This document shows, in pieces, positions 42,929 through 63,022 of a stretch of 64,000 bases of DNA (position 1 is the first letter of the stretch; each line of letters begins with the position of its first letter). The translations under genes and the position numbers were made by a program. The notes beneath the pieces were generated by a model. It was not told the origin of the DNA. It saw nothing but the letters and a program-made list of their open reading frames with translations, and did not search any database. The DNA is from an uncultured Solirubrobacterales bacterium (lineage in GTDB: Bacteria; Actinomycetota; Thermoleophilia; Solirubrobacterales; Solirubrobacteraceae), in NCBI GenBank assembly GCA_963760545.1, contig CAVXDH010000002.1, positions 551,699 to 615,698 on the forward strand, in the 5' to 3' direction.

Positions 42929-42942
42929 CGAACGCATGTTCC
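42929..42942. promoter_or_regulatory. LexA (Cheo/SOS) box-like motif upstream of the HNH gene
   Basis: CGAACGCATGTTCC fits the remembered consensus CGAACRNRYGTTYC at every position. It lies 29 bp before the ATG at 42971. Confidence 0.4.
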
Positions 42943-42970
42943 CATTGCTCTGTCCGACCGATAGTAGACA

Positions 42971-43681: not shown

Positions 43682-43722
43682 AATGTCGCAATGAAGCCCC
43701 GGATGTTCCCGGGGTAGTTCGG

Positions 43723-43796
43723 TCCGGGGTAGCTCAACTGGCAGATGCGCTCGACTGTTAATCGAGAGGTTGTGGGTTCGACTCCCACCCCCGGAG
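43723..43796 (+). tRNA. tRNA-Asn (GTT)
   Basis: Cloverleaf with acceptor tccgggg/ccccgga, anticodon loop ctGTTaa and T-arm gtgggttcgactcccac. Confidence 0.9.
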
Positions 43797-43809
43797 CTTC
43801 TGAATCGTT

Positions 43810-45099
43810 CTAGCGGCGTGCAGCAAGAACAGTGGGCATGCTAGGTGGCGATCCCTGCGCTTCGGCAAGCTGCTCGATGTGCACTGCGGCACGAGCGCCG
43901 GTGTCGTGCTCTGACACCCAGGCGGCAAGCTCTTGCGCGCACTCTCGGATGGAGGCATCGCCGAGGGCGAGTTCGACCGCATGCCGTAGAGGTCTTGGAG
44001 AGATGAAGCGACGCGGCAGACGTACTCCTGCACCTGCCCACACGAGACGCGCGGCGTTCTCGTTCATGTCACCGGCGACTGGGCAGGCGACGACAGGAAC
44101 ACCGAGCGAGAGAGCGCGGACCAGCGTGCCGTGTCCAGCGTGACAGACGATCGCATCGCAATGGGGGAGGGTGCGGACGTAGGAGACCCAGTCCACAACG
44201 CTCGTGTTCTCGGGAACAGATAGCGGGCGCGAGGGGAGACGGCGGTTGTAGGTGGCGAGCACGCGCACGGGAGTGTCCGCGAGACCGCGCAAGGCGGCGT
44301 GCAGCAGACGGTGATCGGGGTCCTGGGAGGTGGAGGGCGCGACAAGGACGACCGGATCGCTGCCTGGCGGTAGCGGAACCTCCTGTGCCGGCGGCTCCCA
44401 CATGAGTGGGCCGATGACATGGGCGTGGGAGGGCCAGGGACGCGGGTACTCCAGCTGGGGAAAGGTGGCGATCAGCGCCAGCTGCCGGCTGGTGCCGCCG
44501 TGCGGATAGGTCAACGGAGGCAGACCGACCTGCGCGCGTGTGCGATTGAGCGCGAGGCGTCCGCTCTCGAGGCCGCGACGCACGGGTAGGTGGGCGCGCT
44601 CCCAGAAGGCACGGCCGGCGGCGGTGCGTGGCAAGCGAGCCCCGAATGAGTAGATCGGAAAGCCCGGGCCCGCCTCCGGAAAGACGTGGGGGACGAGCGT
44701 GGCGCGCGGGATGTCGAGCAGCTCGGCCGCGAGCGATGGTCCCAGCGTGAGAATGTCGTGGACAACGACGTCGGGATGTAGCTCGCGCACTAGCGGAAGC
44801 GTGTCGCGGGTGGCGTAGACCACGGCCTCGTAGAAGTCGAGCGGCTGATCGCCGATCGGAAACGCGCTGTACTCTGGCGCGGGGGTGAAGGTCAGGCCCT
44901 CGGCCTCCACAGGCGCGCGCCAGCGCTCCCATGTCTGCAGCGTTACGTGATGGCCACGGGCAAGCAGCGCGCGGCCGAGCGCGATCATTGGGAACGCGTG
45001 CCCGGGGTCGCCGAAGGCGCCGAGCAGAAGGCGCAACCGCCGCGAAGCGGGTTGCAGACAATCATCCCGCGAAACGGGATGGGCGGTAGAAATGGACAT
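43810..45099 (-). CDS. GT1-family (MGT/UDP-glycosyltransferase-like) glycosyltransferase
   Basis: LLGAFGDPGHAFPMIALGRALLARGHHVTL and the C-terminal CDAIVCHAGHGTLVRALSLGVPVVACPVAGDMNENA. Start at the internal ATG at 45099. Confidence 0.8.
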   Translation of the reverse strand: MSISTAHPVSRDDCLQPASRRLRLLLGAFGDPGHAFPMIALGRALLARGHHVTLQTWERWRAPVEAEGLTFTPAPEYSAFPIGDQPLDFYEAVVYATRDTLPLVRELHPDVVVHDILTLGPSLAAELLDIPRATLVPHVFPEAGPGFPIYSFGARLPRTAAGRAFWERAHLPVRRGLESGRLALNRTRAQVGLPPLTYPHGGTSRQLALIATFPQLEYPRPWPSHAHVIGPLMWEPPAQEVPLPPGSDPVVLVAPSTSQDPDHRLLHAALRGLADTPVRVLATYNRRLPSRPLSVPENTSVVDWVSYVRTLPHCDAIVCHAGHGTLVRALSLGVPVVACPVAGDMNENAARLVWAGAGVRLPRRFISPRPLRHAVELALGDASIRECAQELAAWVSEHDTGARAAVHIEQLAEAQGSPPSMPTVLAARR

Positions 45100-45152
45100 G
45101 ACGCTACGGACTGTGAGTGGCGAACACGGATGTCCCGGCCGTGAGCGTCGCG

Positions 45153-46187
45153 TTAAGCCGCCAGCTCGGCCACGAGACGCAGCTGCTCCAGGCGATCGTC
45201 CTTGTTGAAGGCGATCGGCGTGAGACCGAGCGTTCCGACGCCGGCGTCGCGGTAGATCGCCAGCCGCTCGCGAACGACGTCCTTGGGACCGCACAGCGAG
45301 ACCATGTCGATCAGGGCGTCGGGGATCGCGGCCATCGCCTCCTCGCGCTTGCCCTCCAGATAGAGGTCCTGGATGACTTTCGCCTGCTCCTCGAAGCCAT
45401 AGCGACAGACGAGGTTGTTGTAGAAGTTCTGCTTGCGCGAGCCCATGCCACCGACATACAGCGCGATGAACGGCCGCATCGCGTCGCGTGCGACGGGAAG
45501 GTCGTCGGTGACGAACACGTTGACGGTCGGGGCGATGTCGAAGCCATCGAGCGAGCGTCCGACTCGATCGGCGCCTTCTTGCAATAGAGGGCGCAGCTCG
45601 GAGACGTGCTCGGGTGAGAACAACGTAGGGATCCAGCCATCGGCGATCTCACCGGCAAGCGCCGTGTTCTTGGGACCGATCGCGGCGAGATACACGGGAA
45701 TCTGCTCTTGGACGGGAGCGATCGTGAGCTTCAACGCCTTACCCGGACCATCAGGCAGAGGTAGCTCGAGCGTCTCGCCATGAAACTCGAGTCGTTCGCG
45801 CGCGAGGGCCTTGCGTACAACGGCGACGTACTCGCGCGTACGCTGCAATTGCTTGCCGAATCGCTGTCCGTGCCAGCCCTCAGCGACCTGCGGCCCGGAG
45901 GAGCCGATGCCGAGGATCATGCGCCCACCGGAGAGCTGGTCGATCGTGGCGGCGGTCATCGCGGTCATCGCGGGTGAACGACCTGGCATCTGGAATATGC
46001 CCGAGCCCAGGCGAATCTTCGAGGTCTGCCCGGCAAGCCAGGAGAGCACGGTGGCCGCGTCGGAGCCATAGGCCTCGGCGGTCCACACCGAGTCGTATCC
46101 AAGCTTCTCGGCTTCCTGGACGATTTCAAGCTGGTCTTGAGAGCTGAGTCCGAGGCCCCAGTAGCCGATGTGTACGCCTAGCTTCAT
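45153..46187 (-). CDS. LLM-class (F420-dependent-like) oxidoreductase
   Basis: MKLGVHIGYWGLG...LGYDSVWTAEAYGSDAAT...LGSGIFQMPGRSPA. Confidence 0.85.
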   Translation of the reverse strand: MKLGVHIGYWGLGLSSQDQLEIVQEAEKLGYDSVWTAEAYGSDAATVLSWLAGQTSKIRLGSGIFQMPGRSPAMTAMTAATIDQLSGGRMILGIGSSGPQVAEGWHGQRFGKQLQRTREYVAVVRKALARERLEFHGETLELPLPDGPGKALKLTIAPVQEQIPVYLAAIGPKNTALAGEIADGWIPTLFSPEHVSELRPLLQEGADRVGRSLDGFDIAPTVNVFVTDDLPVARDAMRPFIALYVGGMGSRKQNFYNNLVCRYGFEEQAKVIQDLYLEGKREEAMAAIPDALIDMVSLCGPKDVVRERLAIYRDAGVGTLGLTPIAFNKDDRLEQLRLVAELAA

Positions 46188-46201
46188 GTGCGTCCTTTCC
46201 T

Positions 46202-46924
46202 TTAGATGGCGTCTCCGGGACGCACGAACATCATCTCAGGAACAACACAGGCGGGGGAGACGCGCAGCAGGTAGCGCACCGCCTCGGAGATGTCCTCGGG
46301 ACGAATCATGTCCTCCGCTTTGACTTGGCCCTTCACGAAGTCGGTCATGGGCGTGTCCACGAACGCGGGGCAGAGAGCGGTGGACTTGATGCCGGAGGAG
46401 CCCAACTCCTTGTTCATCGCTTCGGTCCAGCCGACGACCGCATGCTTGGTCGCTGAGTAGACCGAAAGCCACGCCTCGGCACGCTTGCCGGAGATCGAAG
46501 CTGTGTTGACGACCAGCGTGTTGGAGTGCTCCGCCGCCGACTCCTTGAGCATCGAGATGCACTCGCGGTAGAACAGCACGATCGAGCGCACATTGACGTC
46601 GAGCTGCATGTCGAGATGCTTGGTTTGGATCTCTCCAACCGGAGCGCCGATGCCGACGCCGGCGTTGTTGACGAGCACGTCGAGCCGGCCATAGCGCTCT
46701 TTGTGAGCTGCGACGACCTTCTGGATCTCGCTCTCCTCCGAGAGTCCGGCGGGCACGCCATGGACGTCGAACCCGTCAGCGGCAAGTCCGTCGACGGCTG
46801 CTTGGAGCTTCTCTGGTCGCCTGGCGGCCATCGTGACGCCATAGCCCTCCTCGCCGAGCATCCGCGCAATCGCCAAGCCGATACCGCTCGACGCTCCCGT
46901 AACGATCGCTGCACGCGCTGCCAT
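46202..46924 (-). CDS. SDR-family oxidoreductase
   Basis: AIVTGASSGIGLAIA, NNAG and YSATKHAV, the TGxxxGxG and YxxxK motifs. Confidence 0.85.
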   Translation of the reverse strand: MAARAAIVTGASSGIGLAIARMLGEEGYGVTMAARRPEKLQAAVDGLAADGFDVHGVPAGLSEESEIQKVVAAHKERYGRLDVLVNNAGVGIGAPVGEIQTKHLDMQLDVNVRSIVLFYRECISMLKESAAEHSNTLVVNTASISGKRAEAWLSVYSATKHAVVGWTEAMNKELGSSGIKSTALCPAFVDTPMTDFVKGQVKAEDMIRPEDISEAVRYLLRVSPACVVPEMMFVRPGDAI

Positions 46925-47030
46925 TGCCGCTCCCCTCGTTGGTTGACCGACGAATCAAACCATCCCACGCGCATAAGCGCAGGCAGCCGTCGCGCTGGTA
47001 GCTTCTGAGCAGTCGCATAGACCGCGACGC

Positions 47031-47104
47031 GGGCCCGTAGCTCAGTTGGTTAGAGCCGCCGACTCATAATCGGTTGGTCCCAGGTTCGAGTCCTGGCGGG
47101 CCCA
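47031..47104 (+). tRNA. tRNA with CAT anticodon (Met, or more likely lysidine-type Ile2)
   Basis: Acceptor gggcccg/cgggccc, anticodon loop ctCATaa. The anticodon stem and variable loop (gccgaCTCATAAtcggt tggtc) resemble E. coli ileX as I recall it. No encoded CCA. Confidence 0.9.
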
Positions 47105-47106
47105 CT
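47062..47106. repeat. attL core: 45-bp direct repeat (3' part of the tRNA)
   Basis: actcataatcggttggtcccaggttcgagtcctggcgggcccact, identical to 62978-63022. Confidence 0.9.
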
Positions 47107-47107
47107 C

Positions 47108-47137
47108 AAGAATCCTGCATAATTATGCGGGATTCTT
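47108..47137 (+). terminator. hairpin immediately after the tRNA / attL core
   Basis: aagaatcctgcata at tatgcgggattctt forms a 14-bp stem with one G-U. A related hairpin follows the attR core. Confidence 0.45.
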
Positions 47138-47273
47138 GGGTAGGAGGTAGTGCGTACCGTCCCACGACGCGCTTTGGGGCCACTCTTGGGGCCACCCGCC
47201 CCAGAAAGATGTCCCAGCCGCTGACCATCAGTGCGGTTGTTCGGGCGCCCGGTCATTCGCGCGCGTAGTAGCG

Positions 47274-48128
47274 CTACTGTGGCTTTGTCGCGTAGGCGCC
47301 GATGATTGTCGGCCAGAGCGAGATGCGTCCGACCGGTCCGGTGTCGGCACGCAGACGCTCGGCGAGGGTGTCGATGTCCACTTCCTCCTCGGTTGCCACA
47401 CCGGCAGCCACGATCCCGGGCAGCAAGCTGCGGGCATAGTCAACGGCCTCGGAGACTGCCTCCTCACCAACGGCAATCGCGACTTCGCTGTCGAGGTCCA
47501 GGCTGGGCCGCAGGCCGGCTTGCGCGAACGTCGCGGGCAACCGCATTCCCATGTCCGGCTGCGTGCCCAGCCCGCCGAAAGCGCCATCAATCCACTCGCT
47601 GAGCTGCTCAGACGCCGGAGTGTGCGGCCAGGACACCAAGAACCTCTGCGGTATCGCAGACCCCACGCGCATGCACATCTCCGCGAACACGACCACCCCA
47701 CCCGGGCGTACATGGCGTGCCGCGGCCCGCACCGCCGCGGGCGGGTCACCCTGGTACATCAGCACGAGCCGCCCGACCAACGCATCAAACGGGCCACCGG
47801 CAAGCTCGACCTCGCGAAAGTCACCGCACACGAACTCGACGTTCTCGATGCCGGCCTCGGCCGCCCTCTGACGCGCCCTCTCAAGCGCCTGCTCATCACG
47901 CTCGACCCCGACCACCGAACCGTCGGCGCCGACTAGCTCTGACAGAAGTAAACTGACATCGCCCGGCCCGCAGCCCACATCGAGGACCCGCATCCCGGGC
48001 TCGATCCCCGCGCGCGCCAGCAGACGGCGCGTGAACGGCGCATACATGTCGGCCTGGCGGGCCAGCCGCTCGTGCTCACCTTCGTTGGATGCACTCAACG
48101 CATACCCAGGGTCTCCCGTGGCTGACAC
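47274..48128 (-). CDS. class I SAM-dependent methyltransferase (small-molecule type)
   Basis: RVLDVGCGPGDVSLLL...VVGVERDE...DALVGRLVLMY. No DNA-methyltransferase motifs (no DPPY/NPPY, no PCQ). Confidence 0.85.
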   Translation of the reverse strand: MSATGDPGYALSASNEGEHERLARQADMYAPFTRRLLARAGIEPGMRVLDVGCGPGDVSLLLSELVGADGSVVGVERDEQALERARQRAAEAGIENVEFVCGDFREVELAGGPFDALVGRLVLMYQGDPPAAVRAAARHVRPGGVVVFAEMCMRVGSAIPQRFLVSWPHTPASEQLSEWIDGAFGGLGTQPDMGMRLPATFAQAGLRPSLDLDSEVAIAVGEEAVSEAVDYARSLLPGIVAAGVATEEEVDIDTLAERLRADTGPVGRISLWPTIIGAYATKPQ

Positions 48129-48351
48129 GCCGGGAGAGTCTACGCACGCCCGTCAGCCACCGTGGGGCACCCTGCGTCCTCGAAGCGGATACGGCTGCGG
48201 CCTCAGCGCAGAGAAGCAGCAGTCGGCTACGAAACCGTGAACGAGGCGCGCGGTCTACTCGATGCCTGCGCCAGCCCGCTCGCTCGTTCGAGCGCACACC
48301 CACGAAACTCGTCCAGGAACAGACCCGACTAACTAATCCGAGTTCGCAGAA

Positions 48352-48365
48352 CGAACACCAGTTCG
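48352..48365. promoter_or_regulatory. LexA-box-like inverted repeat CGAAC-N4-GTTCG upstream of the TIR gene
   Basis: aCGAACaccaGTTCGt has perfect 5+5 arms and lies 27 bp before the ATG at 48392, in a locally AT-richer stretch. Confidence 0.4.
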
Positions 48366-48391
48366 TCCTCGGTGCTTGATAAACCTAATAG

Positions 48392-49204
48392 ATGGATCGA
48401 GCTGCCTACGAACGTGCGGTCCGGCAGGCGGAAGCCGAACGTCGTCGGCAGATCGATGCGTACAACAGGCAAGTGGATGAGTTCAACCGCCGGGAACGGC
48501 AGCGCGTTGAACGAGAGATCAATGAACACAACCGCCGGGCTGAGCAGCACAACCGGGCAGAAGAACAGCGCGTGCGTGAGGAGGAGCGTCGCGTCAACGA
48601 GCACAACCGGCGCGTCCATCAGCAGAACCAGCGGGCTATCGGCGATTACAACCGCAACATCGGTCAGGTCAACGCCCACAACACAGCCGTGATCGCCGAC
48701 CTCCAGAACCGGCTCCGCGCCGCCACGTCAGGCACTCGCTACACGGTCGATGAGGAGGTGCTTGCTAACCGCATTCAACGGGCGGTCGCACCGCTTGACG
48801 AGCGAGAGTGGGACGTGTTCCTCAGCTACGCGCGGATCGACGGTGGCGAAGCAGGGGACATCCTGCGACAGCAGCTCGAAAGTCTCGGAGTGAGGGTCTG
48901 GTTTGATGAGATCGCGATCCAGCCAGGTAAAAGCCAAGCTCGCCAGATGGACCAGGGGCTACAGAAGGCGCGCGCGGGGGTCGTGCTCCTCACGCCCGCC
49001 TATGTGGCCGGACGCTTCTGGACCGAGCGCGAGCTTGGTGCTCTCCTCCACAAGGAGACGCTGATCCCAGTGCTCGACGGCGTGACCTTCGAGCAGGTGG
49101 CAGAGTACAGCGGCATCCTCCCCGATCTTGCAGGTTTCGAGACGGCACGGGACCCGCTCGAAGCCATCGCGCAGAAGATCGCAGCTGCTGTCCTAACCGG
49201 CTGA
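48392..49204 (+). CDS. TIR-domain protein with N-terminal Asn-ladder coiled coil
   Basis: The C-terminal EWDVFLSYARIDGGEAG...VWFDEIAIQPGKS...VVLLTPAYVAGRFWTERELGALL is a TIR fold including the W-x-x-E motif. The N-terminal 105 aa is charged and helical, with recurrent (E/Q)HNRR. Confidence 0.85.
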   Translation: MDRAAYERAVRQAEAERRRQIDAYNRQVDEFNRRERQRVEREINEHNRRAEQHNRAEEQRVREEERRVNEHNRRVHQQNQRAIGDYNRNIGQVNAHNTAVIADLQNRLRAATSGTRYTVDEEVLANRIQRAVAPLDEREWDVFLSYARIDGGEAGDILRQQLESLGVRVWFDEIAIQPGKSQARQMDQGLQKARAGVVLLTPAYVAGRFWTERELGALLHKETLIPVLDGVTFEQVAEYSGILPDLAGFETARDPLEAIAQKIAAAVLTG

Positions 49205-49314
49205 CCACGCCCACGTTGGCACACGCCATCTCCAAGAGCAAAGTCGAGCCTGTTGCTGTGGTTGTGCGCCGCCGTGGCTCCTGCGTAATCCGGGCGTCGG
49301 CCAGCAGAGAGATC

Positions 49315-50163
49315 CTACTCGCCGCTCTTATCAGGGGCGCGCAGATACTTCTCGGGCATCGCCACGACTCTCACGTCACGCTGCGCCGCCCGGAGCCTCA
49401 TTCCAGCGTCGCCAGTCACGAGCGACACCTTGTTGGGCTTCCCCATTAGCTGTTCAAGTTCGGTGCAGACGGATATGATTGAGCGGTCCGCATCCGGGTC
49501 GCGCGGGTCATCCGAGAACGCCAGCTGGACCTCGATCGTCACGTCCTCCCGCACTCTGCCCGGCGAGCCACCAGGCCCGACATCTCGCTCGAGATTTGTG
49601 AGCGCGGCGCGTGCTCTGCCGCGCACCTTGTCCTTGCCCGTGTACTTGAGCTCGTCGAGCTCGTCAACGACGGTGATCGGCAGGAACAGGCGCACAGGCT
49701 CGACACCGACGATCTCCCTCCAGTTCACCTGCTCGGGTGGCAGGAAGTGCAGTAGAAGATGGGTGTCCAAGACTGCGATATGTCCGGCTGCTTCCGTCGC
49801 TCGCTCGATGCGGCGCTTCAAGTCCTCTGCAACACGCTCCAGGGTGGCTTTCTGGAGTCTGATCTCGCTTTCGATCGGATGCGCGGGCCATGGAGTCTGC
49901 GGGTGCGCTTCTCGGATCGCCCAATAGCCCCGAGTGTGCAGGAGCGAGTCGATTCGCAGCTCGTCGGTGAAGTTCCCGAGCTGGCTTTCGGCCTTGTCGA
50001 CCCAGGTCATGTAGTCCTGCTGTCTCCGACGAAACGTCTCCCAGACATCGGTGGAGACGGCGGACTTGCCGGGCAGGTTACGCAGCTCGATTAGGAGCTC
50101 GTCCAGGATCTCCAGGGCTCGCTCGGGCGTCGCACCGGGCTTGAGCGGGAGGCGGCTAGCCAT
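49315..50163 (-). CDS. PIN-like nuclease domain protein with N-terminal helical domain
   Basis: Acidic quartet candidates are VLDTHLLL, TVVDELDELK, DADRSIISV and LVTGDAGMRLRA. Start at the internal ATG at 50163. Confidence 0.65.
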   Translation of the reverse strand: MASRLPLKPGATPERALEILDELLIELRNLPGKSAVSTDVWETFRRRQQDYMTWVDKAESQLGNFTDELRIDSLLHTRGYWAIREAHPQTPWPAHPIESEIRLQKATLERVAEDLKRRIERATEAAGHIAVLDTHLLLHFLPPEQVNWREIVGVEPVRLFLPITVVDELDELKYTGKDKVRGRARAALTNLERDVGPGGSPGRVREDVTIEVQLAFSDDPRDPDADRSIISVCTELEQLMGKPNKVSLVTGDAGMRLRAAQRDVRVVAMPEKYLRAPDKSGE

Positions 50164-50217
50164 GCCGCACAGCGTACTGGCGCGCAAAGTAGCCGAAGCG
50201 TGAGGGACAATTGATGG

Positions 50218-50793
50218 ATGCCCTTCGCGCTTCCCGGCTACAACCTCGCGTGCGGTCAAGTTGTCTGGTGGGTGACGAAGAATCTCGCAAGGGAAAGCGA
50301 CCCGGTGCTCAGCCAGATCAAGGTAGTGCCGATGAAGGGCACCGTGTCGAGCGTCGTGGAGACGCGGGACGACATCGCGCTTGACCTTCCAGCGGAGCCC
50401 GTCGGATTCGAGCTTGGCGTCAAAGCGGAGGATGTGCGCGATGGGAACTTCGAGGCTCTACAGGTGAAACTCGTCGAGGCCGCTGACGGGTACGCCGAGC
50501 AGCTAGCGAAAATGCTCTACGGGAACCTCGGCAAGATCACCACCGCCACCGGGAACACCCTTGACGCGGGAGGGCGCCCGCTCACCTTCGCGATGCTGTA
50601 CGAGATGCTCGACAAGATGGAATGGAGACTTGATGAGAACGACGAGCTGTCAACACCATCTCTGGTCATGCACCCAGACACGGCGTCGAAGCTCCCCCAG
50701 CCGACGCCCGAGCAAGTGAAGATGATCGAGGAGTTGAAAGCCCGCAAGCTGGAGGAGTTGCTTGCTAAGCGACGCCGTCGCCGCCTATCTTGA
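50218..50793 (+). CDS. hypothetical protein (first gene of two-gene operon)
   Basis: ORF with no recognisable motif and an acidic core ending in a KRRRRR tail. An alternative start at ATG 50332 would give 153 aa. Its 3' end overlaps the next ORF. Confidence 0.4.
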   Translation: MPFALPGYNLACGQVVWWVTKNLARESDPVLSQIKVVPMKGTVSSVVETRDDIALDLPAEPVGFELGVKAEDVRDGNFEALQVKLVEAADGYAEQLAKMLYGNLGKITTATGNTLDAGGRPLTFAMLYEMLDKMEWRLDENDELSTPSLVMHPDTASKLPQPTPEQVKMIEELKARKLEELLAKRRRRRLS

Positions 50794-52300
50794 GTCCGTC
50801 TCCGAGCGGGCGTTTGACGAGCCTTTGATGGCTCTGTTGCGGGCGCGCGGGTTTGCGTCCGTGCGGCTGGTCCACGGCGCGCGCGAGTTCGGGAAGGACG
50901 TGATCGCCCGACGCGATGGCGAGCAGTGGGGCTTCCAGTCGAAGGCGGGTGACATAGGGCAACCTGAGTGGAGAACGCTCACCGGCCAGCTTGACGAGCT
51001 GCGCGTTGTCAACCTCGGACATGGAGCGTTCAACACAGAGCTGCCGCGCCGCCCAGTGTTGGTCACGACCGGCCGGCTCGTGGGCAACGCGCCGGAGCTT
51101 TACGGCGATTACAACAAGCGGGCCAACGAGAGAGGCGAGCCCGAGCTGGAGCTGTGGGATCGCGACATCCTGCTCGGCCACCTCGCGAGTGATCCCGAGT
51201 CGGTGCTGAGCGGGTCGATCGACGGCCAGCTCATGTCGATCTTGGGCGCTGCCGAGGCGCGTTCGGTGACGATGCCAGAGCTGGAGGTGTTCTCGCGTCG
51301 GTGGATGGCGTGGGAGCCGGAGCGACTGGCCGGGCTCGGGGTGATAGAGGCAGCGTTGGTCTGCGAGAAGCTACGGGGCGTTGATCGACTCGACCTTGCT
51401 TGTCATCTTGCGTTGTGCCTCGTGCGCGCGGTGTGGGCCTCGGGAGCGACAAACCTGCCCGATGACATGTCGGCCACCGCGGCAAGATCACTGTTCGAGG
51501 CGTATGCCCGCGCGCTGTGGGAGAAGTGTGGCGACGAGCTGCTGGAGCACCCGCTGCTCAATGACATCGAGTTCGGGGGATGGGTGACGTACCCCGTGCG
51601 CTGCGTGAGGCTGGCCGAGATCCTTGGTTTGCTGGCGCTGCTGGTGAAGGAGTCCGACCCGGAGCTGTGGGGGGAGATCTCGCGGTGGCTGGTGACGCTC
51701 TGCGAGAAGCAGCCCGGCGTAGCCCATCCGATCAGCGACCAGTATGCCGTGAGCGTCATCCCCGCCGTCCTCGCGCTCGCGAGCGTCGATCGAGTAGCGG
51801 CGGAGACGCATCTCAAGAGATGCACCATCTGGCTGTGCGATCGTTACGAACGCGACGCGCTCGGCCTCGCGCGCGAAGACGCGACTTCCGATGAAGAGGT
51901 CGAATATCTGATCGGCGGCCCGTTCGAAAGCGTGCAGCTCGAACGGCGCCCAGACTCACTCATAGCTCCCGTGCTCCTCGACCTCGCCGCTGCGCTCGGA
52001 TCGACAGACTTGTACGGCGACATTTACAACGACGTGTTGGCCGTGCGTATCTGCCCGCAAGTGCTCCGCCTCGCTGACGGGCCAGACCAGTATTCCCGCA
52101 CCGGCAATGGAAATCGCATCGATCCAAACGTCGATTTCGCAGAATCACTGGCTGACGAAGGGATCGTCGCGCCGCACTACAACGACAAGGCAGGGGACAG
52201 CCAAGTCGCGAGCGGGCACGCATGGGACCTGCTCGCCATCGGATCGGCGCTGCGCGATCGGTACTACGTCCGCGCGCTGGCGTCGCTCGCGGACGAGTAG
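50762..52300 (+). CDS. Mrr-type (PD-(D/E)xK) restriction-endonuclease-like N-domain fused to ~370-aa helical domain of unknown function
   Basis: The N-terminus (ERAFDEPLMALLRARGFASVRLVHGAREFGKDVIARRDGEQWGFQSKAG...VLVTTGRLVGNA) matches the Mrr_cat pattern D-x(n)-(D/E)-x-K, here GKDVIA...QSK. The rest is unassigned. Confidence 0.55.
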   Translation: MLSDAVAAYLESVSERAFDEPLMALLRARGFASVRLVHGAREFGKDVIARRDGEQWGFQSKAGDIGQPEWRTLTGQLDELRVVNLGHGAFNTELPRRPVLVTTGRLVGNAPELYGDYNKRANERGEPELELWDRDILLGHLASDPESVLSGSIDGQLMSILGAAEARSVTMPELEVFSRRWMAWEPERLAGLGVIEAALVCEKLRGVDRLDLACHLALCLVRAVWASGATNLPDDMSATAARSLFEAYARALWEKCGDELLEHPLLNDIEFGGWVTYPVRCVRLAEILGLLALLVKESDPELWGEISRWLVTLCEKQPGVAHPISDQYAVSVIPAVLALASVDRVAAETHLKRCTIWLCDRYERDALGLAREDATSDEEVEYLIGGPFESVQLERRPDSLIAPVLLDLAAALGSTDLYGDIYNDVLAVRICPQVLRLADGPDQYSRTGNGNRIDPNVDFAESLADEGIVAPHYNDKAGDSQVASGHAWDLLAIGSALRDRYYVRALASLADE

Positions 52301-52625
52301 ACCGCGCTCGTGGTCTCCGACTGGCCCACCGGATACGTGCGCGAACTTACGAGCGAGACCAATAGTGAATGCGGCGTGATACCGGGTAGCGGAGTGCGCG
52401 GACTGCCGCGCCAGATGGCTTACTTGTCGTCCAGTGGGCAAACGGAGCGTCGCGATGATTAGACGTTTGCCTCCCACCCGTAAGCGCCAGCATCCCGTCG
52501 TCCAAGGACAGCGCGCTCGCTCACACCTTGGCTCGCTCCGAGACCCGCTTGGGGTAGTTTCTATGCGTGGCGTGCATGCTCGGTAAGAGGTTGGTCCTCG
52601 CGGCCCAGAGCGCGGGGCGTTGTAG

Positions 52626-53759
52626 GTGAGTGACCAGCTGCTTTGCTGGGATCGCGCCTGGCTGCGGTTTGCCTGCATGAGCGGCCTGGTCGTGTTGATT
52701 GCAGCGCTTGGCCTCATTCTCGCTGCCTGCGGTTCCTCCGCAGGGACGGCGACAGCGAGCGTAGTACGCCTGTCCCCGTCCTGCATACCGCCCGAATTCA
52801 GCAAGCGGGGGTTGCTTGGACCCCGGCGGCCGCTCCCCAAGGCGCTCTCGACTCCGCTGGACGCCGCGATCTTGTCCAGCTTCACCATCTTTCGCAGACC
52901 CCGGCTACCGAGCGATGAGCCTCCGGGGCTGAACCTGGCGGCCAACGGACTGGGCCGCGAGCTCTACAAGACCTACAAGCTCTCGAGCTACTACCCCGCC
53001 TACGTCCGCCAGCTAACGAGGCTCCCCGACGGTAGACGCTATTTCGTGATCCCGGCGTACGGACGGCCCGAAGCAGTCGTCCCGGCCCACTGTCTGGCGG
53101 GCGGGGAGCGTGCTCGGCGCGCACTGGTCGAAGAGCAGCACCGGCGCCTGGTTGAGCCGGTCGACTGCATCATCGAGATGGGAGGCGGTGAAAACGAACC
53201 TCCCCAAGGATGCGAGCCGTTCGCTGCAATCGACGAAGGTGAGCGGATATTCCAGTCGGACGACTTGTACAAGGAACCGACCGTCGAACTGGTGCCCGAT
53301 GGTGTCGCTTCGGTTCGGATCGAATACAGGGAAACGTCCGCGATCACCGTGCCGGTCAGCGAAAACACTTTCCTGTTTACACCACCACCGCCGACGCCTC
53401 GTGTCGAGGCTGAACTGAAACGGCTGGAACGGCTGCAACGGATGGAGCCCGTGATCGTGACGACGCACCCCACCACGGCCCAGCGTCCTACGGCCCAACG
53501 TCGCCGTATCACGTTGCAGTGGGACAAGACTGTGGATGAAACCGAGCCGACGCGGATCGAATGGCTCGACAGCGCCGGTCGCCTAGTCCGCGCCCTCAGC
53601 CCTCCTACCGCCGAAAGCAGCTCTGCTACCTCCGTTGGCAACCTCGATGCTCCCCTCGAAGGCAGCTTCACCCTCCAGTCATCTAGGTCATCGCCAAGTG
53701 ACCGTCGGAGTGCTTCGGAGCACCGCAGCATGACTAGTCCTGTTCACGGGCATCGCTAG
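52626..53759 (+). CDS. putative secreted lipoprotein of unknown function
   Basis: The signal peptide has a lipobox (LVVLIAALGLILAACGSS). No other motif. An alternative start lies at 52677. Confidence 0.5.
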   Translation: MSDQLLCWDRAWLRFACMSGLVVLIAALGLILAACGSSAGTATASVVRLSPSCIPPEFSKRGLLGPRRPLPKALSTPLDAAILSSFTIFRRPRLPSDEPPGLNLAANGLGRELYKTYKLSSYYPAYVRQLTRLPDGRRYFVIPAYGRPEAVVPAHCLAGGERARRALVEEQHRRLVEPVDCIIEMGGGENEPPQGCEPFAAIDEGERIFQSDDLYKEPTVELVPDGVASVRIEYRETSAITVPVSENTFLFTPPPPTPRVEAELKRLERLQRMEPVIVTTHPTTAQRPTAQRRRITLQWDKTVDETEPTRIEWLDSAGRLVRALSPPTAESSSATSVGNLDAPLEGSFTLQSSRSSPSDRRSASEHRSMTSPVHGHR

Positions 53760-53836
53760 CGCTTTTGCCGGCAGAGCGGGCGCGTCCGGGCGCCGCGACT
53801 AAACCGGCCGCCCTGGCGTCTACCATCGATTGGTCG

Positions 53837-54844
53837 ATGAGTACCAACGCTTGGAGAAAGAACCACACCGTGAGCGCCGGGCTCGTGCGGCGCTTCGCTG
53901 GTACCACGCCCGGTGGCAAGCAGGTCACGGTGCATCACCGACTGAAGGGCCAATACGACGAAGGCCCAAACGGCGTCGGCTACGAGTTCGACTACTGGGG
54001 CCCGCCAGACCTCGCCGAGAAGGTCGAGGGAATCCTCGCCCGCATTGAGTCTGATGCACTCTCCTTGTTCAGGAATCTTGAGTCTCGCTGGCCCCTGACG
54101 GACGGGGATCGCATAGCGCTTGCACGGTTCGTATCCCTGCACATCGTTCGCACGCGAGCCTTCACGACGTTTCTGGGCGAGGTCGGCAAGGATGCGGCGA
54201 TTGATGCGCTCGGCGAGACTGCAGCCAAGCACAACCTCGACGAGGCCGGGATCGCTCCCTACGCCGAGCTGCTCAAGAGTCCGCACATGCACGCTCAGCA
54301 GGTCATTCGACAGGTGAACCGCGTCGCAAGCCCCTTGCTGAGTATGCACTGGACGATCATCGAGTTCGCCGAGGACCTGCTCATAGGCTGCGATCAGCCG
54401 GTCATCCTGATCCCGTGGGCGAGACCAGACCGGCTTGGGCCGGAGTCCGCGATCCCGCCGTTCGGCATGATGGGCACGTTCGAGGGGCGCTTCACATTGG
54501 ACCCGCGTCACGCGCTTTTGATGACGTGGGTCGAGAGTGCCGATGAGCCATGGATCATCGGCGACCGCATACAGGCGAGCCACATCAACGCCTCCGTCAA
54601 GGCGCTCGCGGTCGATGAATGGTTTCGCCGCCCGGGGACCAACCCGCCGTTCATCTCAGCGCCGCTACTTGAAGAACGAGTGGACCCGATCGCCCCGACT
54701 CTCTTTCGCGGGTATACACCGCAGCGTGCCGTCGCGTCGCCCCGGCGGCGGGTTGCCGAACAGACCGTCAAGAAGATGACGCTAGAGCAGACCCCAGACG
54801 CCGAGGTGCGCTGGGTGCGGTACCAGACTCAGCGTGCGGCTTGA
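53837..54844 (+). CDS. DUF4238-like protein
   Basis: The N-terminal KNHTVSAGLVRRFAG resembles the H-x-V/I-P-x-F-x-L-R-x-F start I associate with DUF4238. Unverified. Confidence 0.45.
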   Translation: MSTNAWRKNHTVSAGLVRRFAGTTPGGKQVTVHHRLKGQYDEGPNGVGYEFDYWGPPDLAEKVEGILARIESDALSLFRNLESRWPLTDGDRIALARFVSLHIVRTRAFTTFLGEVGKDAAIDALGETAAKHNLDEAGIAPYAELLKSPHMHAQQVIRQVNRVASPLLSMHWTIIEFAEDLLIGCDQPVILIPWARPDRLGPESAIPPFGMMGTFEGRFTLDPRHALLMTWVESADEPWIIGDRIQASHINASVKALAVDEWFRRPGTNPPFISAPLLEERVDPIAPTLFRGYTPQRAVASPRRRVAEQTVKKMTLEQTPDAEVRWVRYQTQRAA

Positions 54845-55007: not shown

Positions 55008-57656
55008 TCACCGTCCGCGTCCGATGTCGTGATCAGGCGCGTCGCGTGCTGGTGTTCGCAAGAGCTGGTCCACATGAGGAATCAGCCTGCTGAGGCGTAG
55101 CGGATCGCGGCTGGGATCCCACGACGAGCCTGGGGTTTCTCGGTGAGTGACGGATGGTGTGTGTGCTCGACTTCGGGTCATCCGTCCGGCGAGGCGTGTG
55201 ATCTGGTCGGGATCTTGTCCTTCGTTGCCGAGTTGGTCGCGGGCGAGGTACCAGTCGGTGCCGTGGCGGGCGCGGGTGGCTTGTACGTAGGCCGACTCTC
55301 GGCTTGTTTGCCAGCCGCCGGTGAGCACCACGGCACGATCGACTGTCGCGCCCTGTTGCCGGTAGACGTGTTGGGCGTAGGCGAGCCGCAGCGACTCCGC
55401 GTCTTGACGTGCAATTTGCAGCCGGCGGTCTGATCCGTCGAGCGCGAGCGTCAGCCTTCCCTCCTGGTCGATGTTCGTGACTTGGCCGCGAGTACCGTTC
55501 TCGACGCGTGGTTGGCCTTGCGGGCGGTGTTGGGCGATGAACGCGACGCGGTCGCCTTGCCGTAGCCCGTAATGGACGCTTGAGAGCGGAAGTTCGTCTG
55601 GGCCGAGTTCGCCGCGCTGGGCGCGGAGGTGTTGTGCGCGGGCGTTGAGCCTGTCGATCTCCTTGTTCGTGGAATCTGCGATCAGCGCGACTTTGTCGAT
55701 CCCGGCTTCTCTGGTGAGTTCTGCCCAGGCTTGGACGGCGCTCTCGGCGGCATGGTCGCGGGTGTCGGCGAGGTGGAGCCGTCCTTGAGCCTTGTAGTGG
55801 GCCATCGCGCGCTCGGGTTCGCCCGCTCGTAGCGCTTGCCACGCTCGTTGCTCTTGTGGGTCGGTTGTGCGGTGGATCCTCTCCAGTTCCACTGTCGGCG
55901 CGTGGCCTGTGAGCCGGTCGAACATGCCACCCGGACCTATCGAGGGGAGCTGCTGGCCGTCGCCAACCGCGATCAGCTTCGCTCTTGAACCCTCCACCAG
56001 CTCGGTGAGCGCGTCGAGGCGCTTGTGGTCGACCATCCCGGCCTCATCGAGAATGATCGTCGTGTCGGGACCAACATGGACGCTTCCGGTATTTGCTCGG
56101 GCGGTGAGCGCGTCGAGCGTCATCGTGTTTCCTTGAAGCGCAGGGCTGTCGGCTCCAAGCCGCTCAGCCGTCGAGCCGGAGACAGCGATCCCGATCGTTT
56201 CACGACCTGCCAGTTGCTCCGCTCGTGCGGCGGCGTCGATCACGACGCCCTTCCCCGTTCCTGCCGGGCCGACGAGCACGGTTGCACGCTCGGGACCAGT
56301 CAGGACGAGCAACGCCATGTCTTGCTCATCAGTGAGCGGAGCGCCGATACGCTCGGCGACCTCCCGTGCCGCGTTCATCTGTGCGGTGTGGCTGACATCG
56401 CGTCCGGCGGGTCGGGCAAGTACGGCGGCCCGTCGTTCGATTGCCTGCTCCTGTGCGCGGACAGCGAGCGTTGTCATCCGGCCACCCTCAAGTGTCAACA
56501 CGCGCCGATCCCGGATCATCTCCCGCGCTACGTCGAGCGCTTCATGCGGCGCCAGTTCTCCGGCGGTCTGCTCCAGGGCGACGGTGTGCAGGTCGCGCAG
56601 CTCGAAGACGGCGTGACGCTCGGTGAGACGTTCCTCGATCCGATCCTCCACCGACCGAATGGCAGGCCGGCTGCGCTCGCCGGCGAGCAGTCGCAACGCC
56701 TCATCGGGACCGAACCCATAGCGGCTCGCGGTGTCCCTCCACACGTTCTCAAGGTCAGCTCGGTTGGTGAGCTTCTTCGCGCGACGGTTCTCGAGCGCGA
56801 GGTCGCGCAGCTCGCCACGCTCAGGCGCTCGACCGTAGCGCGCACGGAAGCGGTCGGCGGCTCGCGCGACCTCCCTGGAGCGTCCCGAGAAGGCATCACG
56901 CAGCTCCTCGGGGACACCCGCGATCTCGAAATACTTGCCGTCCCTGCCGGTCGCCTGTTCGATTGCGTACCCCTGTGCGGCGAGTTCCTGTGCAAGCGCA
57001 GAGCGGTAGAAGGCGCCGACCTCGCCCGCCGAACGAAATACCGGCCGGGAGGCCACCGCAACGATCCGATCGTCCTCGCGCACCGCGCTCGTGATGACGA
57101 CATGACTGTGGAGCTGCGGATCGGGCGCGTCGGCTCCTGAGACACCGCGCGCCGTTGTGTGCTGGTACTCGACTGCGATCAAGTCCTTGGCTGGCTCCTC
57201 GATGACCTCGCCGCCATAGCGGCGACGGACGACGCCAACGTTCTCGCGCATGTAGGCGACCGCCTGCTCGACCGCGTTTGCGTGGGCTTTCTCGATCTGC
57301 TCTCGCTGCCATGAATCGGCAAGTGCCCAAGTGGTCGATACCGACTTCGGCGCGCTGAAAACGCCGTCGATCCCACCGCCACGGCTGCCGTCGGCACCGG
57401 CACGCCGAAGCCACCGCGCTGTCTGTGGATGGCGACCTTCCATGAGCGCAACGAAGTCCTCGCCGCTCATTGGTGTGTCCGCCCGGATGCCGAGCCTTTC
57501 AAGCGTCTCTGAGTCGGCCAACCATCTTCCCGGAGCCTGGGTCATCTCGCCGTCGGGGGTCAGGTAGTAGTCGCCGCGCTCGGGCGCGACGGTCTTCCCC
57601 TCCAGATATCGGGCGTAGTCGCCACCACGCGCCGCCGGGATGCTCGCTGCGGTCAT
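55008..57656 (-). CDS. traA: MobF/TrwC-family relaxase fused to RecD-like helicase
   Basis: GGDYARYLEG...ERGDYYL (catalytic Tyr pair), HTTARG...DPQLHSHVVI (His triad), and the helicase P-loop LVGPAGTGKG with C-terminal UvrD-like motifs. Confidence 0.85.
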   Translation of the reverse strand: MTAASIPAARGGDYARYLEGKTVAPERGDYYLTPDGEMTQAPGRWLADSETLERLGIRADTPMSGEDFVALMEGRHPQTARWLRRAGADGSRGGGIDGVFSAPKSVSTTWALADSWQREQIEKAHANAVEQAVAYMRENVGVVRRRYGGEVIEEPAKDLIAVEYQHTTARGVSGADAPDPQLHSHVVITSAVREDDRIVAVASRPVFRSAGEVGAFYRSALAQELAAQGYAIEQATGRDGKYFEIAGVPEELRDAFSGRSREVARAADRFRARYGRAPERGELRDLALENRRAKKLTNRADLENVWRDTASRYGFGPDEALRLLAGERSRPAIRSVEDRIEERLTERHAVFELRDLHTVALEQTAGELAPHEALDVAREMIRDRRVLTLEGGRMTTLAVRAQEQAIERRAAVLARPAGRDVSHTAQMNAAREVAERIGAPLTDEQDMALLVLTGPERATVLVGPAGTGKGVVIDAAARAEQLAGRETIGIAVSGSTAERLGADSPALQGNTMTLDALTARANTGSVHVGPDTTIILDEAGMVDHKRLDALTELVEGSRAKLIAVGDGQQLPSIGPGGMFDRLTGHAPTVELERIHRTTDPQEQRAWQALRAGEPERAMAHYKAQGRLHLADTRDHAAESAVQAWAELTREAGIDKVALIADSTNKEIDRLNARAQHLRAQRGELGPDELPLSSVHYGLRQGDRVAFIAQHRPQGQPRVENGTRGQVTNIDQEGRLTLALDGSDRRLQIARQDAESLRLAYAQHVYRQQGATVDRAVVLTGGWQTSRESAYVQATRARHGTDWYLARDQLGNEGQDPDQITRLAGRMTRSRAHTPSVTHRETPGSSWDPSRDPLRLSRLIPHVDQLLRTPARDAPDHDIGRGR

Positions 57657-58059
57657 CACATGAAGTGATGACCGTGAGAAGGCCGAAACGGCCACCGACT
57701 TGCTCACACAGTCGTCACACAGCGCACGCACTCTTGTGCATGTTGTCTGTCGTGGCTGTTTGTCGTGGCTGTTTGGAGCGTCGCGGGCGATGCGGCGCGG
57801 AGGCGACCTTGCAGGCGATGGGTGGTCGTGTGCTCGGCGGAACTCGGGTCAGGTCGGTGGGTAGAGGATGCGCCGTCGGCGCTTGTTAGAAGCGTCTGGA
57901 CAACTGGCCTTTGGCGTTTTGTCAAGTTTGGTGTTGGCAGGGGTGTTCGTCCGTGCTGTTGGCGCGGTTGTTGGGTGCTGCTGGCTGTGCTCGTTGCTGG
58001 TTGCTGGGAGCGGTGAGATGGCACGCCGTGGCCTGATTAGGTGCGCGTGCGGCCTTGGT

Positions 58060-61592: not shown

Positions 61593-61638
61593 TGGGAGTT
61601 TCCAACCGATACACCTCCTACGATCAAATGGAGGTGTG

Positions 61639-62946
61639 ATGACCGACAAGCGCAAGCTAGAGAAGACGAGTGTCCCCGGCATCTATCGCCGGCACGCTGG
61701 CGGGTGCAAAGGCAACGGCCGCTGCAAATGCCCATACGTGGTCCGGTGGAAGGAGCGTGGCCAGGAGCACAAGCAGATGTTCGCCACCTTTGAGTTGGCG
61801 CGAGAGTTCAAGGCGAACCTCGGGTCGGGCAAGGGCGGTCGTCGGCCGCAATCGTCGTTGACCGTGGCTACCTACTACGAGACGTGGTTTCCCGCCTATC
61901 GAGGTCGTACGAGTCGGGGGCTTGAGAAGTCCACGCGGCGGGAGTACGAGATCAGCTTTCGACTGCACATCCTGCCGTTGCCTATCGCTCGGATTCGGAT
62001 GCGCGAATTGGCGGCGCCCGACGTGCGCGACTGGCTACGCCAGCTTGAGCGTCGAGACGCGACACCGAGCACGATCCGTCGCGCCAAGGCCGCGCTGTCG
62101 GTCATGCTTGCGTCGGCCGTCGAAGATGGCGACCTTGGCTCCAATCCGGCGGCTGGCGTCAGGTACGTGCCGTCTGACACTGCGAAGCGGCAGCACCGCA
62201 AGCCGCCCCCGCGCGCGCTGACCGCAGAAGACGTTATGGCAATCTTGGCCGCGATGCCGGTGTCTTGGCGCGCGTTCTTCACCTTGCTTGCGCAGACGGG
62301 CGTACGGATCGGCGAGCTGCTGGGACTGACCTGGGAGCACGTCCACCTGGGCGACGATCCTCACATCATGGTCGCCGAGCAGGTCTACCGTGGCGAGCGC
62401 AAGAAGCTCAAGACCGAGGCGAGCTATGCGCGCGTGCCGCTGTCGGCTTCGATGGCGGCGTGGTTGACCGAGCTGCGGCCCGAGGACGTGGCGACCGACG
62501 CTCCGGTGTTCCCGTCCGCCACGGGCACGCCGTTGAGCTACCACAACGTCTACAACCGCGTGCTGCACCCCGCGCTGATCGACGCCGGGATCGCCGTGCA
62601 GACGGGAACGGTGACGGTGCGCAGGGGAGGGGAGGACATCGAGGAGCCCGTGTGGGACTACCAGGGGGTCGCGTTCCACGCTTTCCGCAAGGCGTGCGGA
62701 TCGCTGCTGCTCGCGCACGGCAAGAGCCTCAAGCAGGTGCAGGGCTGGCTACGCCATTCACAGCTCACCACGACGATGAACGTCTACATCCACCAGGTCG
62801 ACGACGGGCTCGGCAGCGCGGATGCGTGGGACGACATCCTGGGGGACGCTCGGGGCCACCTTGGGGCCACCGAAGGTCCGGAGGCGGTGCAAAACACACC
62901 CGGCGCCCGCCCCCAAAAAACCGCACGGTTGAGCCAAATCAGCTAG
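61639..62946 (+). CDS. int: tyrosine-type site-specific integrase
   Basis: QTGVRIGELLGLTWEHV (Arg), HAFRKACGSLL (His-x-x-Arg) and LRHSQLTTTMNVYIH (His...Tyr). It ends 31 bp before the attR core. Confidence 0.9.
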   Translation: MTDKRKLEKTSVPGIYRRHAGGCKGNGRCKCPYVVRWKERGQEHKQMFATFELAREFKANLGSGKGGRRPQSSLTVATYYETWFPAYRGRTSRGLEKSTRREYEISFRLHILPLPIARIRMRELAAPDVRDWLRQLERRDATPSTIRRAKAALSVMLASAVEDGDLGSNPAAGVRYVPSDTAKRQHRKPPPRALTAEDVMAILAAMPVSWRAFFTLLAQTGVRIGELLGLTWEHVHLGDDPHIMVAEQVYRGERKKLKTEASYARVPLSASMAAWLTELRPEDVATDAPVFPSATGTPLSYHNVYNRVLHPALIDAGIAVQTGTVTVRRGGEDIEEPVWDYQGVAFHAFRKACGSLLLAHGKSLKQVQGWLRHSQLTTTMNVYIHQVDDGLGSADAWDDILGDARGHLGATEGPEAVQNTPGARPQKTARLSQIS

Positions 62947-62977: not shown

Positions 62978-63022
62978 ACTCATAATCGGTTGGTCCCAGG
63001 TTCGAGTCCTGGCGGGCCCACT
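62978..63022. repeat. attR core: second copy of the 45-bp tRNA 3' segment
   Basis: Exact copy of 47062-47106. It lacks the D-arm and 5' anticodon stem, so it is not a functional tRNA. Confidence 0.9.

Follow-up and report, generated by a model that had tools for sequence, protein, structure and literature searches.

This analysis concerns a single gene in a 64,000-nucleotide stretch of DNA, referred to below as the window, from an uncultured Solirubrobacterales bacterium (assembly GCA_963760545.1, contig CAVXDH010000002.1, forward-strand positions 551,699 to 615,698). The gene encodes a protein in which a long helix rich in asparagine and arginine is followed by a linker and a TIR domain, and it lies within a mobile element. 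A first-pass annotation, made from the letters and their translation, had described it as a stand-alone TIR protein with an unusual N-terminus. The open reading frame (ORF) is present exactly as stated there and forms one intact gene. The features of the gene and of its upstream region are the following, the helix, the linker and part of the TIR domain evidence resting on structure prediction with AlphaFold2 (AF2).

48392..49204, + strand: complete coding sequence with an ATG start, 270 amino acids (aa), comprising the Asn/Arg-repeat helix, linker and TIR domain (ORF list and translation)
48352..48365, no strand assigned: perfect palindrome CGAACACCAGTTCG, candidate repressor operator, 27-40 nt upstream of the ATG
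48377..48385, + strand: TGaTAAACC, which resembles an extended -10 element and stops 6 nt short of the ATG
48398..48721 (aa 3-110), + strand: single long basic amphipathic helix of [VI]-[DN]-x-[HYV]-N-R-x units with 13 Asn (AF2, motif statistics)
48701..48802 (aa 104-137), + strand: conserved linker LxNRLR-x-A-x-SG-x-RYT-x-x-E-x-LA-x-R (alignments, AF2)
48803..49192 (aa 138-267), + strand: TIR domain of the AbTir/PdTIR/TcpB clade (Pfam, phmmer against the PDB, Foldseek, family identity)
48926..48934, + strand: G179-K-S181, BB-loop Gly and Ser, equivalents of AbTir G174 and S176 (alignment, invariance)
49019..49033, + strand: W210-T-E212-R-E214, the alphaC-helix Trp and predicted catalytic Glu (alignment to AbTir, invariance)

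The hidden Markov model (HMM) of Pfam TIR_2 (PF13676) scores 61 bits over residues 142-230 (E=2e-16; cutoff 28 bits), in line with the earlier recognition of a TIR domain from its hallmark motifs. Translation places these motifs as follows: DVFLSY from residue 141, VWFDE from residue 169 and FWTEREL from residue 209. In a phmmer search of the PDB, the nearest solved structures are AbTir of Acinetobacter baumannii (E=3e-15), PdTIR of Paracoccus denitrificans (E=4e-14) and TcpB/BtpA of Brucella (E=1e-12), with BtTir also among them, and SARM1 ranks far behind these four. The AF2 monomer model, built from a 101-sequence alignment, displays the TIR elements (strand 140-145, helix 148-164, strand 169-171, helix 182-192, strand 193-200 and onward). 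In Foldseek this part of the model superposes on PdTIR, TcpB, AbTir and BtTir with TM-scores of 0.77-0.89 and a root-mean-square deviation of ~2 Å. The TIR domain is also the most conserved region of the protein, with a mean pairwise identity of 0.81 within the family.

A catalytic glutamate had been proposed in a Trp-x-x-Glu position. The glutamate is present and invariant, but its assigned position was wrong, the true residue being E214, four residues after the tryptophan. In the residue-level alignment, WTNYEL of AbTir pairs with WTEREL of the query, which places AbTir W204 on W210 and AbTir E208 on E214. Because E214 aligns with AbTir E208, the motif is best written as W-x-E-x-E, with the second glutamate as the predicted catalytic residue. 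We take this glutamate of the alphaC region to belong to the AbTir E208 / SARM1 E642 class. E214, W210, G179 and S181 are all invariant, both in an alignment of 24 family members and in one of 101. In AbTir, the substitutions E208A, G174A and S176A each abolish activity, W204 is required for cyclisation of ADP-ribose (ADPR), and TIR domains of this clade make cyclic ADPR (cADPR) isomers (10.1101/2022.05.07.491051). By alignment, the TIR domain retains all the catalytic determinants that were examined, and the gene product is probably an NAD-cleaving TIR enzyme.

As described previously, the N-terminal part is highly charged (25 Arg, 15 Glu and 5 Asp among 110 residues) and helical: AF2 gives one uninterrupted helix over residues 3-110 (pLDDT 85-96), which is amphipathic on a helical net. 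The helix has a net charge of +5 in the query; for the family the value is +8 per 100 aa, and the rest of the protein is acidic. Asparagines occur at residues 25, 32, 44, 47, 54, 69, 72, 79, 87, 89, 94, 97 and 106; all positions listed in the first-pass annotation were correct, with 44, 69 and 89 overlooked. This amounts to 13 within the first 110 residues versus 1 in the other 160 (Fisher p=5e-5). Among homologues, the helix varies from 55 to 130 residues in length and from 7 to 16 in Asn count. It is the least conserved region (mean pairwise identity 0.56), and the asparagines at 72, 79, 87, 94 and 97 are near-invariant in the 101-sequence alignment.

The asparagines had been read as recurring at roughly heptad spacing, which is partly correct. 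Steps of seven residues are frequent, but the true periodicity is 3.65 residues and not 3.5. Across 197 family proteins, the unit around each Asn takes the form [V/I]-[D/N]-x-[H/Y/V]-N-R-x, and the distance from one Asn to the next is 7, 8 or 3 residues. These distances follow each other in the order 7-8-7-8 or 7-3-8, giving super-repeats of 15, 18 and 11 residues. Fourier analysis of Asn, hydrophobic residues and His in the query gives a power of 3.82 at 3.65 residues versus 0.35 at 3.5, and none of 5000 shuffled sequences reaches the observed power. The family mean over 195 proteins is similar (3.55 at 3.65 versus 0.32 at 3.5), and Asn alone, hydrophobics alone and both combined all peak at 3.65. 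Taken by themselves, the Asn i/i+7 pairs are weakly significant in the query (4 pairs, reached in 148 of 5000 shuffles). The Asn pattern is carried mainly by conservation across the family, and the Asn ladder is real and conserved.

On a helical net drawn at 3.65 residues, a central line of V28, V39, V61, V68, I90 and I101 is flanked on one side by Y24, F31, H46, H53 and Y86, and on the other by N25, N32, N47, N54, N72, N87 and N94; Arg, Glu and Gln make up the remaining surface. A seam with a period of 3.65 residues runs straight along the helix and therefore indicates a non-heptad helix. A canonical left-handed heptad coiled coil was ruled out by the peak at 3.65, where 3.5 is expected, together with the alternating Asn spacings. 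The seam favours packing against another helix or a partner over a classical left-handed coiled coil or an ER/K single helix.

At the DNA level, the repeated octamer noted previously, CACAACCG, is present in three copies (at 48527, 48548 and 48602), each encoding His-Asn-Arg in frame. Apart from it, the DNA repeats of the gene are degenerate, with 61-75% identity between direct repeats, and TRF found no tandem array in the gene. A recent expansion of repeats at the DNA level is ruled out by these two observations.

The linker between helix and TIR domain has a mean pairwise identity of 0.67, above that of the helix. Its invariant or near-invariant residues are L104, L108, R109, G114, P115, R116, Y117, T118, E121, L124, A125, D126 and R127. 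AF2 models it as a low-confidence loop (111-118) followed by a short helix (119-132).

The TIR gene is truly stand-alone and travels alone between genomes and mobile elements. As had been noted, it has no co-directional partner in the window: the methyltransferase gene upstream (47274-48128, - strand) is divergent and the PIN_4 gene downstream (49315-50259, - strand) is convergent. The gene family counts 1110 homologues at E<=1e-3. The best 120 of these are 59-94% identical to the query over approximately the full length, and TIR_2 is their sole Pfam domain, save for an overlapping TIR (PF01582) match in a few. Scanning one genome per species yielded 80 loci. They fall in Actinomycetota (Solirubrobacterales, Microbacterium, Streptomyces, Kribbella and others) and in Pseudomonas, Stenotrophomonas, Halomonadaceae, Planctomycetota, Opitutales, Spirochaetales, Desulfobacteraceae and Gemmatimonadota. 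The proteins of nearly all these loci share at least 50% identity, and this holds across Actinomycetota, Pseudomonadota, Planctomycetota, Verrucomicrobiota and Spirochaetota, indicating horizontal spread of the gene.

Clustering of all ORFs within +/-6 kb across the 80 loci revealed no conserved neighbour; only the TIR gene itself and out-of-frame ORFs inside it exceed 8 of 80 loci. Neighbours that recur most often are tyrosine integrases (8 of 80), XRE-ImmA-like proteins (6), type I HsdR (6) and HsdS (5), TrwC relaxases (5) and resolvases (5), and transposases also occur. The window is syntenic, at 92-99.9% identity, with the chromosome OY970270.1 of a Solirubrobacterales metagenome-assembled genome (MAG; locus L001). 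With a related MAG (L003), only positions 48281-49219 are shared, covering the TIR gene, 111 bp on its upstream side and 15 bp on its downstream side. Since no conserved partner gene lies within 6 kb in the 80 loci and L003 shares the gene alone, the gene belongs neither to Thoeris nor to CBASS, as had been suspected from its neighbours. Full-length homologues are also found on three actinobacterial plasmids (Rhodococcus, Pseudarthrobacter), in one case with a MobF relaxase on one side and an Abi family protein on the other. A search of 50,697 phage records gave no full-length homologue, 2.9 million IMG/VR contigs contained only one, and a phage origin of the gene is ruled out by this near-absence.

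Several neighbours in the window were considered as possible partners and set aside. The divergent methyltransferase is a class I enzyme dependent on S-adenosylmethionine (SAM), of the UbiE/ArsM type by Pfam and NCBIfam, and not an evident DNA methyltransferase. Apart from the syntenic sister genome, the only locus examined with such an arrangement is a Pseudarthrobacter plasmid (L083, NZ_CP047899.1, 4925-6690), where a TIR homologue has a divergent class I SAM methyltransferase upstream. This likeness appears coincidental, because only the SAM-binding motif is common to the two methyltransferases (E=1e-4 over 72 aa). Of the loci compared, only the syntenic sister genome L001 also has the window's methyltransferase, PIN, 191-aa ORF (ORF191) and Mrr-like genes next to its TIR gene. 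The DUF4238 gene is found beside the TIR gene only in L001 and, as a 39%-identical homologue, in L005.

The upstream region points to a further layer of control in one clade. All eight Solirubrobacterales loci (L001-L008) have a perfect CGAAC-N4-GTTCG, its N4 variable, at 40-50 nt upstream of the start codon, and none of the 72 others has one; the background frequency is 0.007 per 290 bp. In the same eight loci, TG-n-TA is invariant, ends 6-7 nt before the ATG and keeps a fixed distance from the palindrome; together these two elements account for almost all invariant positions in the upstream alignment. A promoter scan upstream of the TIR gene found no canonical sigma-70 -35/-10 pair, and the promoter proposal is based solely on phylogenetic footprinting. 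The geometry suggests a leaderless transcript that would be repressed at the -35 position.

The palindrome matches the LexA (SOS/Cheo) box consensus of Gram-positive bacteria and actinobacteria. The identity of the factor as LexA was not confirmed by the three other GAAC-N4-GTTC sites in the window, none of which adjoins a recognisable SOS gene: the site at 2017 lies by a PMT-type glycosyltransferase gene, that at 20407 inside an FtsJ/TlyA-like gene and that at 42930 upstream of a gene for a helix-turn-helix (HTH) protein. For this reason the assignment to LexA stays putative. Occurrence in 8 of 80 loci suggests regulation specific to the clade, possibly SOS-linked repression, rather than a property of the family. 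The site at 42930-42941, GCGAACGCATGTTCC, is a near-perfect box situated 30 nt upstream of an HTH_38/HTH_23 gene (236 aa, 42971-43681), just before tRNA-Asn (43723-43797), and this gene and the TIR gene could be under the same regulatory factor.

Comparison with known systems places the protein close to an architecture that has been described before. The best PADLOC model for the query is PDC-S66 (E=2e-33), with residues 12-267 aligned to profile positions 29-280 of 282, and the same model is the best PADLOC match in all 24 family members examined. PDC-S66 is one of 145 phage defence candidates, nominated from embedding in BREX, DISARM and type I restriction-modification loci (10.1101/2024.01.29.577857); elsewhere in the literature it is mentioned only among listed detections. 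Against this model the AbTir TIR domain scores 269 bits and that of PdTIR 230 bits, and the query TIR contributes 98 of a whole-protein score of 114. As the AbTir and PdTIR domains score far above the query, PDC-S66 effectively represents the AbTir/PdTIR coiled-coil-TIR family. The layout of the two proteins is nearly the same: AbTir has 269 aa with a coiled coil (CC) at 27-118 and a TIR domain at 134-267, and the query has 270 aa with the helix at 3-110 and the TIR domain at 138-267. The phmmer alignments to the PDB start at residue 138, although the entry 8g83 has 41 residues upstream. Lacking detectable sequence homology to the AbTir family in its N-terminus, the query family is best treated as a divergent sister family and not a core member. 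By sequence, the query is a divergent relative of AbTir-type CC-TIR proteins, whose architecture itself is already known.

AbTir, PdTIR, TcpB and BtTir are the nearest TIR domains in both sequence and fold, with the catalytic Glu, the cyclisation Trp and the BB-loop Gly and Ser retained, but their identity to the query TIR is ~25-31%. In contrast to the AbTir family, the query family carries an Asn-Arg repeat of its own, which recurs with a period of 3.65 residues and varies in copy number. Full-length AbTir is a dimer whose activity is initially suppressed, its self-association needs both CC and TIR domains, and the crystal dimers it has in common with PdTIR and TcpB appear inactive (10.1101/2022.05.07.491051). 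In both AbTir and TcpB the CC domains associate with themselves, and a role in helping the TIR domains to cluster has been proposed for them (10.1101/2022.05.07.491051). This published model is the same mechanism that the first-pass annotation had proposed for the query, namely TIR self-association driven by the helix.

Another close parallel is SpbK (YddK) of Bacillus subtilis ICEBs1, the N-terminal domains of which dock on the dodecameric SPbeta portal and cluster the TIR domains, leading to NAD+ depletion and abortive infection (PMC12847820). Like the query, SpbK is a single-gene TIR NADase on an integrative mobile element, with an N-terminal helical domain followed by TIR. Its N-terminus, however, is a compact 94-residue four-helix bundle, as opposed to the 108-residue single helix of the query, and no SpbK structure was among the top 50 Foldseek matches listed. 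Two further classes of TIR effector were rejected. An effector of CBASS or Pycsar would not fit, as Pfam finds only TIR domains, with no SAVED, STING or cNMP-binding domain, and no cyclase is in the neighbourhood; the PADLOC SAVED-TIR models match the query over the TIR part only. An RT-TIR retron (type XII) was excluded since the protein has no reverse transcriptase domain and the NCBIfam and PADLOC RT-TIR matches cover the TIR only, with 43 bits against a cutoff of 600.

The N-terminal helix also occurs outside the TIR family. A word-indexed database search with residues 1-122 returned no match, the index evidently being unable to seed the low-complexity helix. Searched exhaustively by phmmer, residues 1-135 gave 29 matches, which include, besides fragments of the TIR family, the protein P0144. 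Of the matches without a TIR Pfam domain, most were frameshifted or truncated members of the TIR family, and P0135, a eukaryotic ADAMTS-like protein, was spurious. P0144 has 163 relatives of ~320 aa (e.g., P0153, P0218, P0263; P0150-P0268), from records named Mesorhizobium, Sinorhizobium, Methylorubrum, Labrys and similar, mostly Hyphomicrobiales-type alphaproteobacteria. These proteins combine N-terminal Asn/Arg repeats with a C-terminal pP_pnuc_1 domain (PF18165, E ~1e-36), the Pfam description of which is 'predicted pPIWI-associating nuclease'.

The N-terminus of the pP_pnuc_1 family carries [VI] at -4, Y/H/V at -1, N, and R/Q at +1, with a periodicity of 3.65, the motif and the period both being those of the TIR family. 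Alignment of the N-termini of the two families by hhalign gave 98.2% probability (E=3e-14, 101 columns); reversed and eight column-shuffled controls gave at most 0.4%. The pP_pnuc_1-family genes are solitary and sit in variable defence-island settings (loci L084-L094), with neighbours such as a CBASS operon plus BrxR, or AbiE plus an MC5/CTD9 system. The two families are thus alike in a homologous N-terminal module, single genes and variable defence islands, and differ in the effector, which is a predicted pPIWI-associated nuclease in one and a TIR domain in the other. Being shared by both, the Asn/Arg helix is a portable module that serves at least two effector types. PADLOC matches of the pP_pnuc_1 family are weak and fall on Aga_Nuclease and on tail regions of ZorA.

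With moderate confidence, we regard the gene as a self-contained TIR NAD+ glycohydrolase of the AbTir/PdTIR/TcpB type, borne on a mobile genetic element and most likely acting as a single-gene abortive-infection (anti-phage or anti-invader) module that is activated by clustering. In the sequence of events that we propose, the helix would hold the protein as a small inactive oligomer with its TIR domains in a non-productive arrangement, as in full-length AbTir dimers. Upon invasion, the helix may self-assemble further or dock onto a multimeric target derived from the invader, so that helices become concentrated or re-ordered. This would line up the TIR domains head-to-tail through the BE interface, in strands with composite active sites. 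NAD+ would then be cleaved and cell growth would stop with the invader's cycle still incomplete. Because the cyclisation Trp is conserved, a cyclic ADPR isomer is a probable by-product. In Solirubrobacterales, expression may be additionally gated by the repressor operator that resembles a LexA box.

Several observations weigh against this proposal. The AF2 confidence over the TIR part is moderate (pLDDT 54-85). The N-terminal helix of the query gives ~16 of the 114 PDC-S66 bits and is not detectably homologous to the AbTir CC, so AbTir biochemistry transfers to the helix by analogy only. The near-absence from phage collections does not prove a defence role. A more far-reaching extension, which we offer tentatively and hold more probably wrong than right, is that the Asn/Arg helix, basic and with its straight 3.65-residue seam, would be an undescribed portable sensor-and-assembly module of variable length, mounted on at least two suicide effectors. 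Rather than acting as a passive dimerisation coil, it would trigger them by polymerising on or alongside an invader-derived polymer, such as nucleic acid or a phage structural multimer, and in Solirubrobacterales it would also be wired to the DNA-damage response via the LexA-type operator.

The operator itself raises the alternative of an element-selfish toxin or a stress-induced suicide module, kept repressed (by a LexA-like factor in this clade) and expressed on DNA damage or derepression, which would stabilise the element, hinder competing elements or kill cells with prophages under induction. The overlap of CGAAC-N4-GTTCG with the promoter region in 8 of 8 Solirubrobacterales loci, together with carriage on an integrative mobilisable element and on plasmids, would agree with such a role. 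We nevertheless think it rather unlikely, given that the palindrome is limited to 8 of 80 loci, that the LexA link is putative with no recognisable SOS gene by the other three sites, and that no antitoxin-like partner is present. The gene could also be an orphan ThsB-like TIR, which would detect infection and generate a cyclic ADPR isomer to switch on an effector (ThsA or another SLOG/Macro protein) whose gene lies elsewhere in the genome, its own depletion of NAD+ being irrelevant. PADLOC ThsB1 models do match the TIR domain (E=1e-23 and 9e-13) and match 24 of 24 family members as well, the cyclisation Trp is invariant, and TIRs of the AbTir clade are known to yield cADPR isomers. Infection sensing and NAD+ cleavage would probably be common to ThsB and the query. 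However, no ThsA-type effector (SIR2, Macro/TM-SLOG) or any other gene is conserved alongside in the 80 loci, a one-gene cassette moving between phyla would part from an unlinked receptor, and PDC-S66 outscores every ThsB model; this makes an orphan ThsB an unlikely explanation.

The remaining alternatives concern the role of the helix and the target of the protein. With 45 of 110 residues being R, E or D, with stretches such as EEQRVREEERR, and with an isolated helix in the AF2 monomer, the N-terminus might be a monomeric ER/K-type single alpha-helix spacer or a low-complexity tail devoid of an assembly or sensing role, the TIR domain being regulated otherwise. Neither a conserved amphipathic seam at 3.65 (0 of 5000 shuffles) nor near-invariant asparagines would be expected from a spacer, and a second family with a different effector retains the module as a whole, so we hold this to be quite improbable. 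Finally, the presence of TcpB/BtpA among the nearest solved TIR domains recalls the role first proposed for TcpB/BtpA and TcpC, i.e., a virulence factor that mimics host TIR adaptors against eukaryotic innate immunity. Here the host belongs to an environmental Solirubrobacterales MAG lineage, the family is spread in soil and marine bacteria, its neighbourhoods are mobile elements and defence islands, and there is no secretion signal or secretion-system context. Such a role is hardly credible for this gene.

Single-gene TIR NADases count as some of the simplest immune effectors, and how they are kept silent and switched on is known for very few, with SpbK as the main example. The present family is large, cross-phylum and already flagged by PADLOC as the PDC-S66 candidate, and it represents no new class of system. 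What it adds are handles: pinpointed catalytic residues, an Asn-lined helix common to a nuclease family, and a conserved operator that predicts the timing of expression. Modest new leads come from the shared N-terminal module and from the LexA-like operator.

The genomic setting of the gene is defined by the following features of the window.

47031-47105: tRNA-Met gene (tRNA prediction)
47062..47106, + strand: attL, the 3' 44 nt of tRNA-Met plus 1 nt (45-nt exact direct repeat within a 74-nt repeat of 88% identity)
55008..57731, - strand: TrwC-type relaxase/helicase (Pfam TrwC E=4e-64, AAA_30 E=4e-42)
61636..62946, + strand: tyrosine integrase, abutting attR (Pfam Phage_integrase E=2e-17)
62978..63022, + strand: attR, second copy of the 45-nt tRNA-Met 3' segment (repeat search)

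Measured from the start of attL to the start of attR, the element is 15,916 bp long. Its cargo includes the methyltransferase, the TIR protein, the PIN_4 protein, a protein with an Mrr_cat domain and a DUF4238 protein. With its TrwC relaxase the element is mobilisable, and this 15.9-kb tRNA-Met island has the make-up of an integrative mobilisable element with the TIR gene as cargo. Synteny with L001, over window positions 39808-57526, is mosaic, with ~92-95% identity up to 53274 and 99.9% from 53271 on. L001 carries two insertions that are missing from the window, at its positions 3393-5313 (including an IS256-type transposase) and 14884-16554 (1.67 kb).

Other genes of the island display features of their own. 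The PIN_4 protein has a 160-residue N-terminal extension, no match in PADLOC or NCBIfam and no adjoining antitoxin-like gene. Positions 50218-52300 hold two overlapping co-directional ORFs of 191 aa and 512 aa. The shorter product is without family assignment, with a weak HK97-capsid-like match (E=0.004). The longer one has an N-terminal Mrr_cat restriction-endonuclease domain and a weak match to PADLOC OloB (E=8e-5). This pair may represent a second defence candidate on the island.

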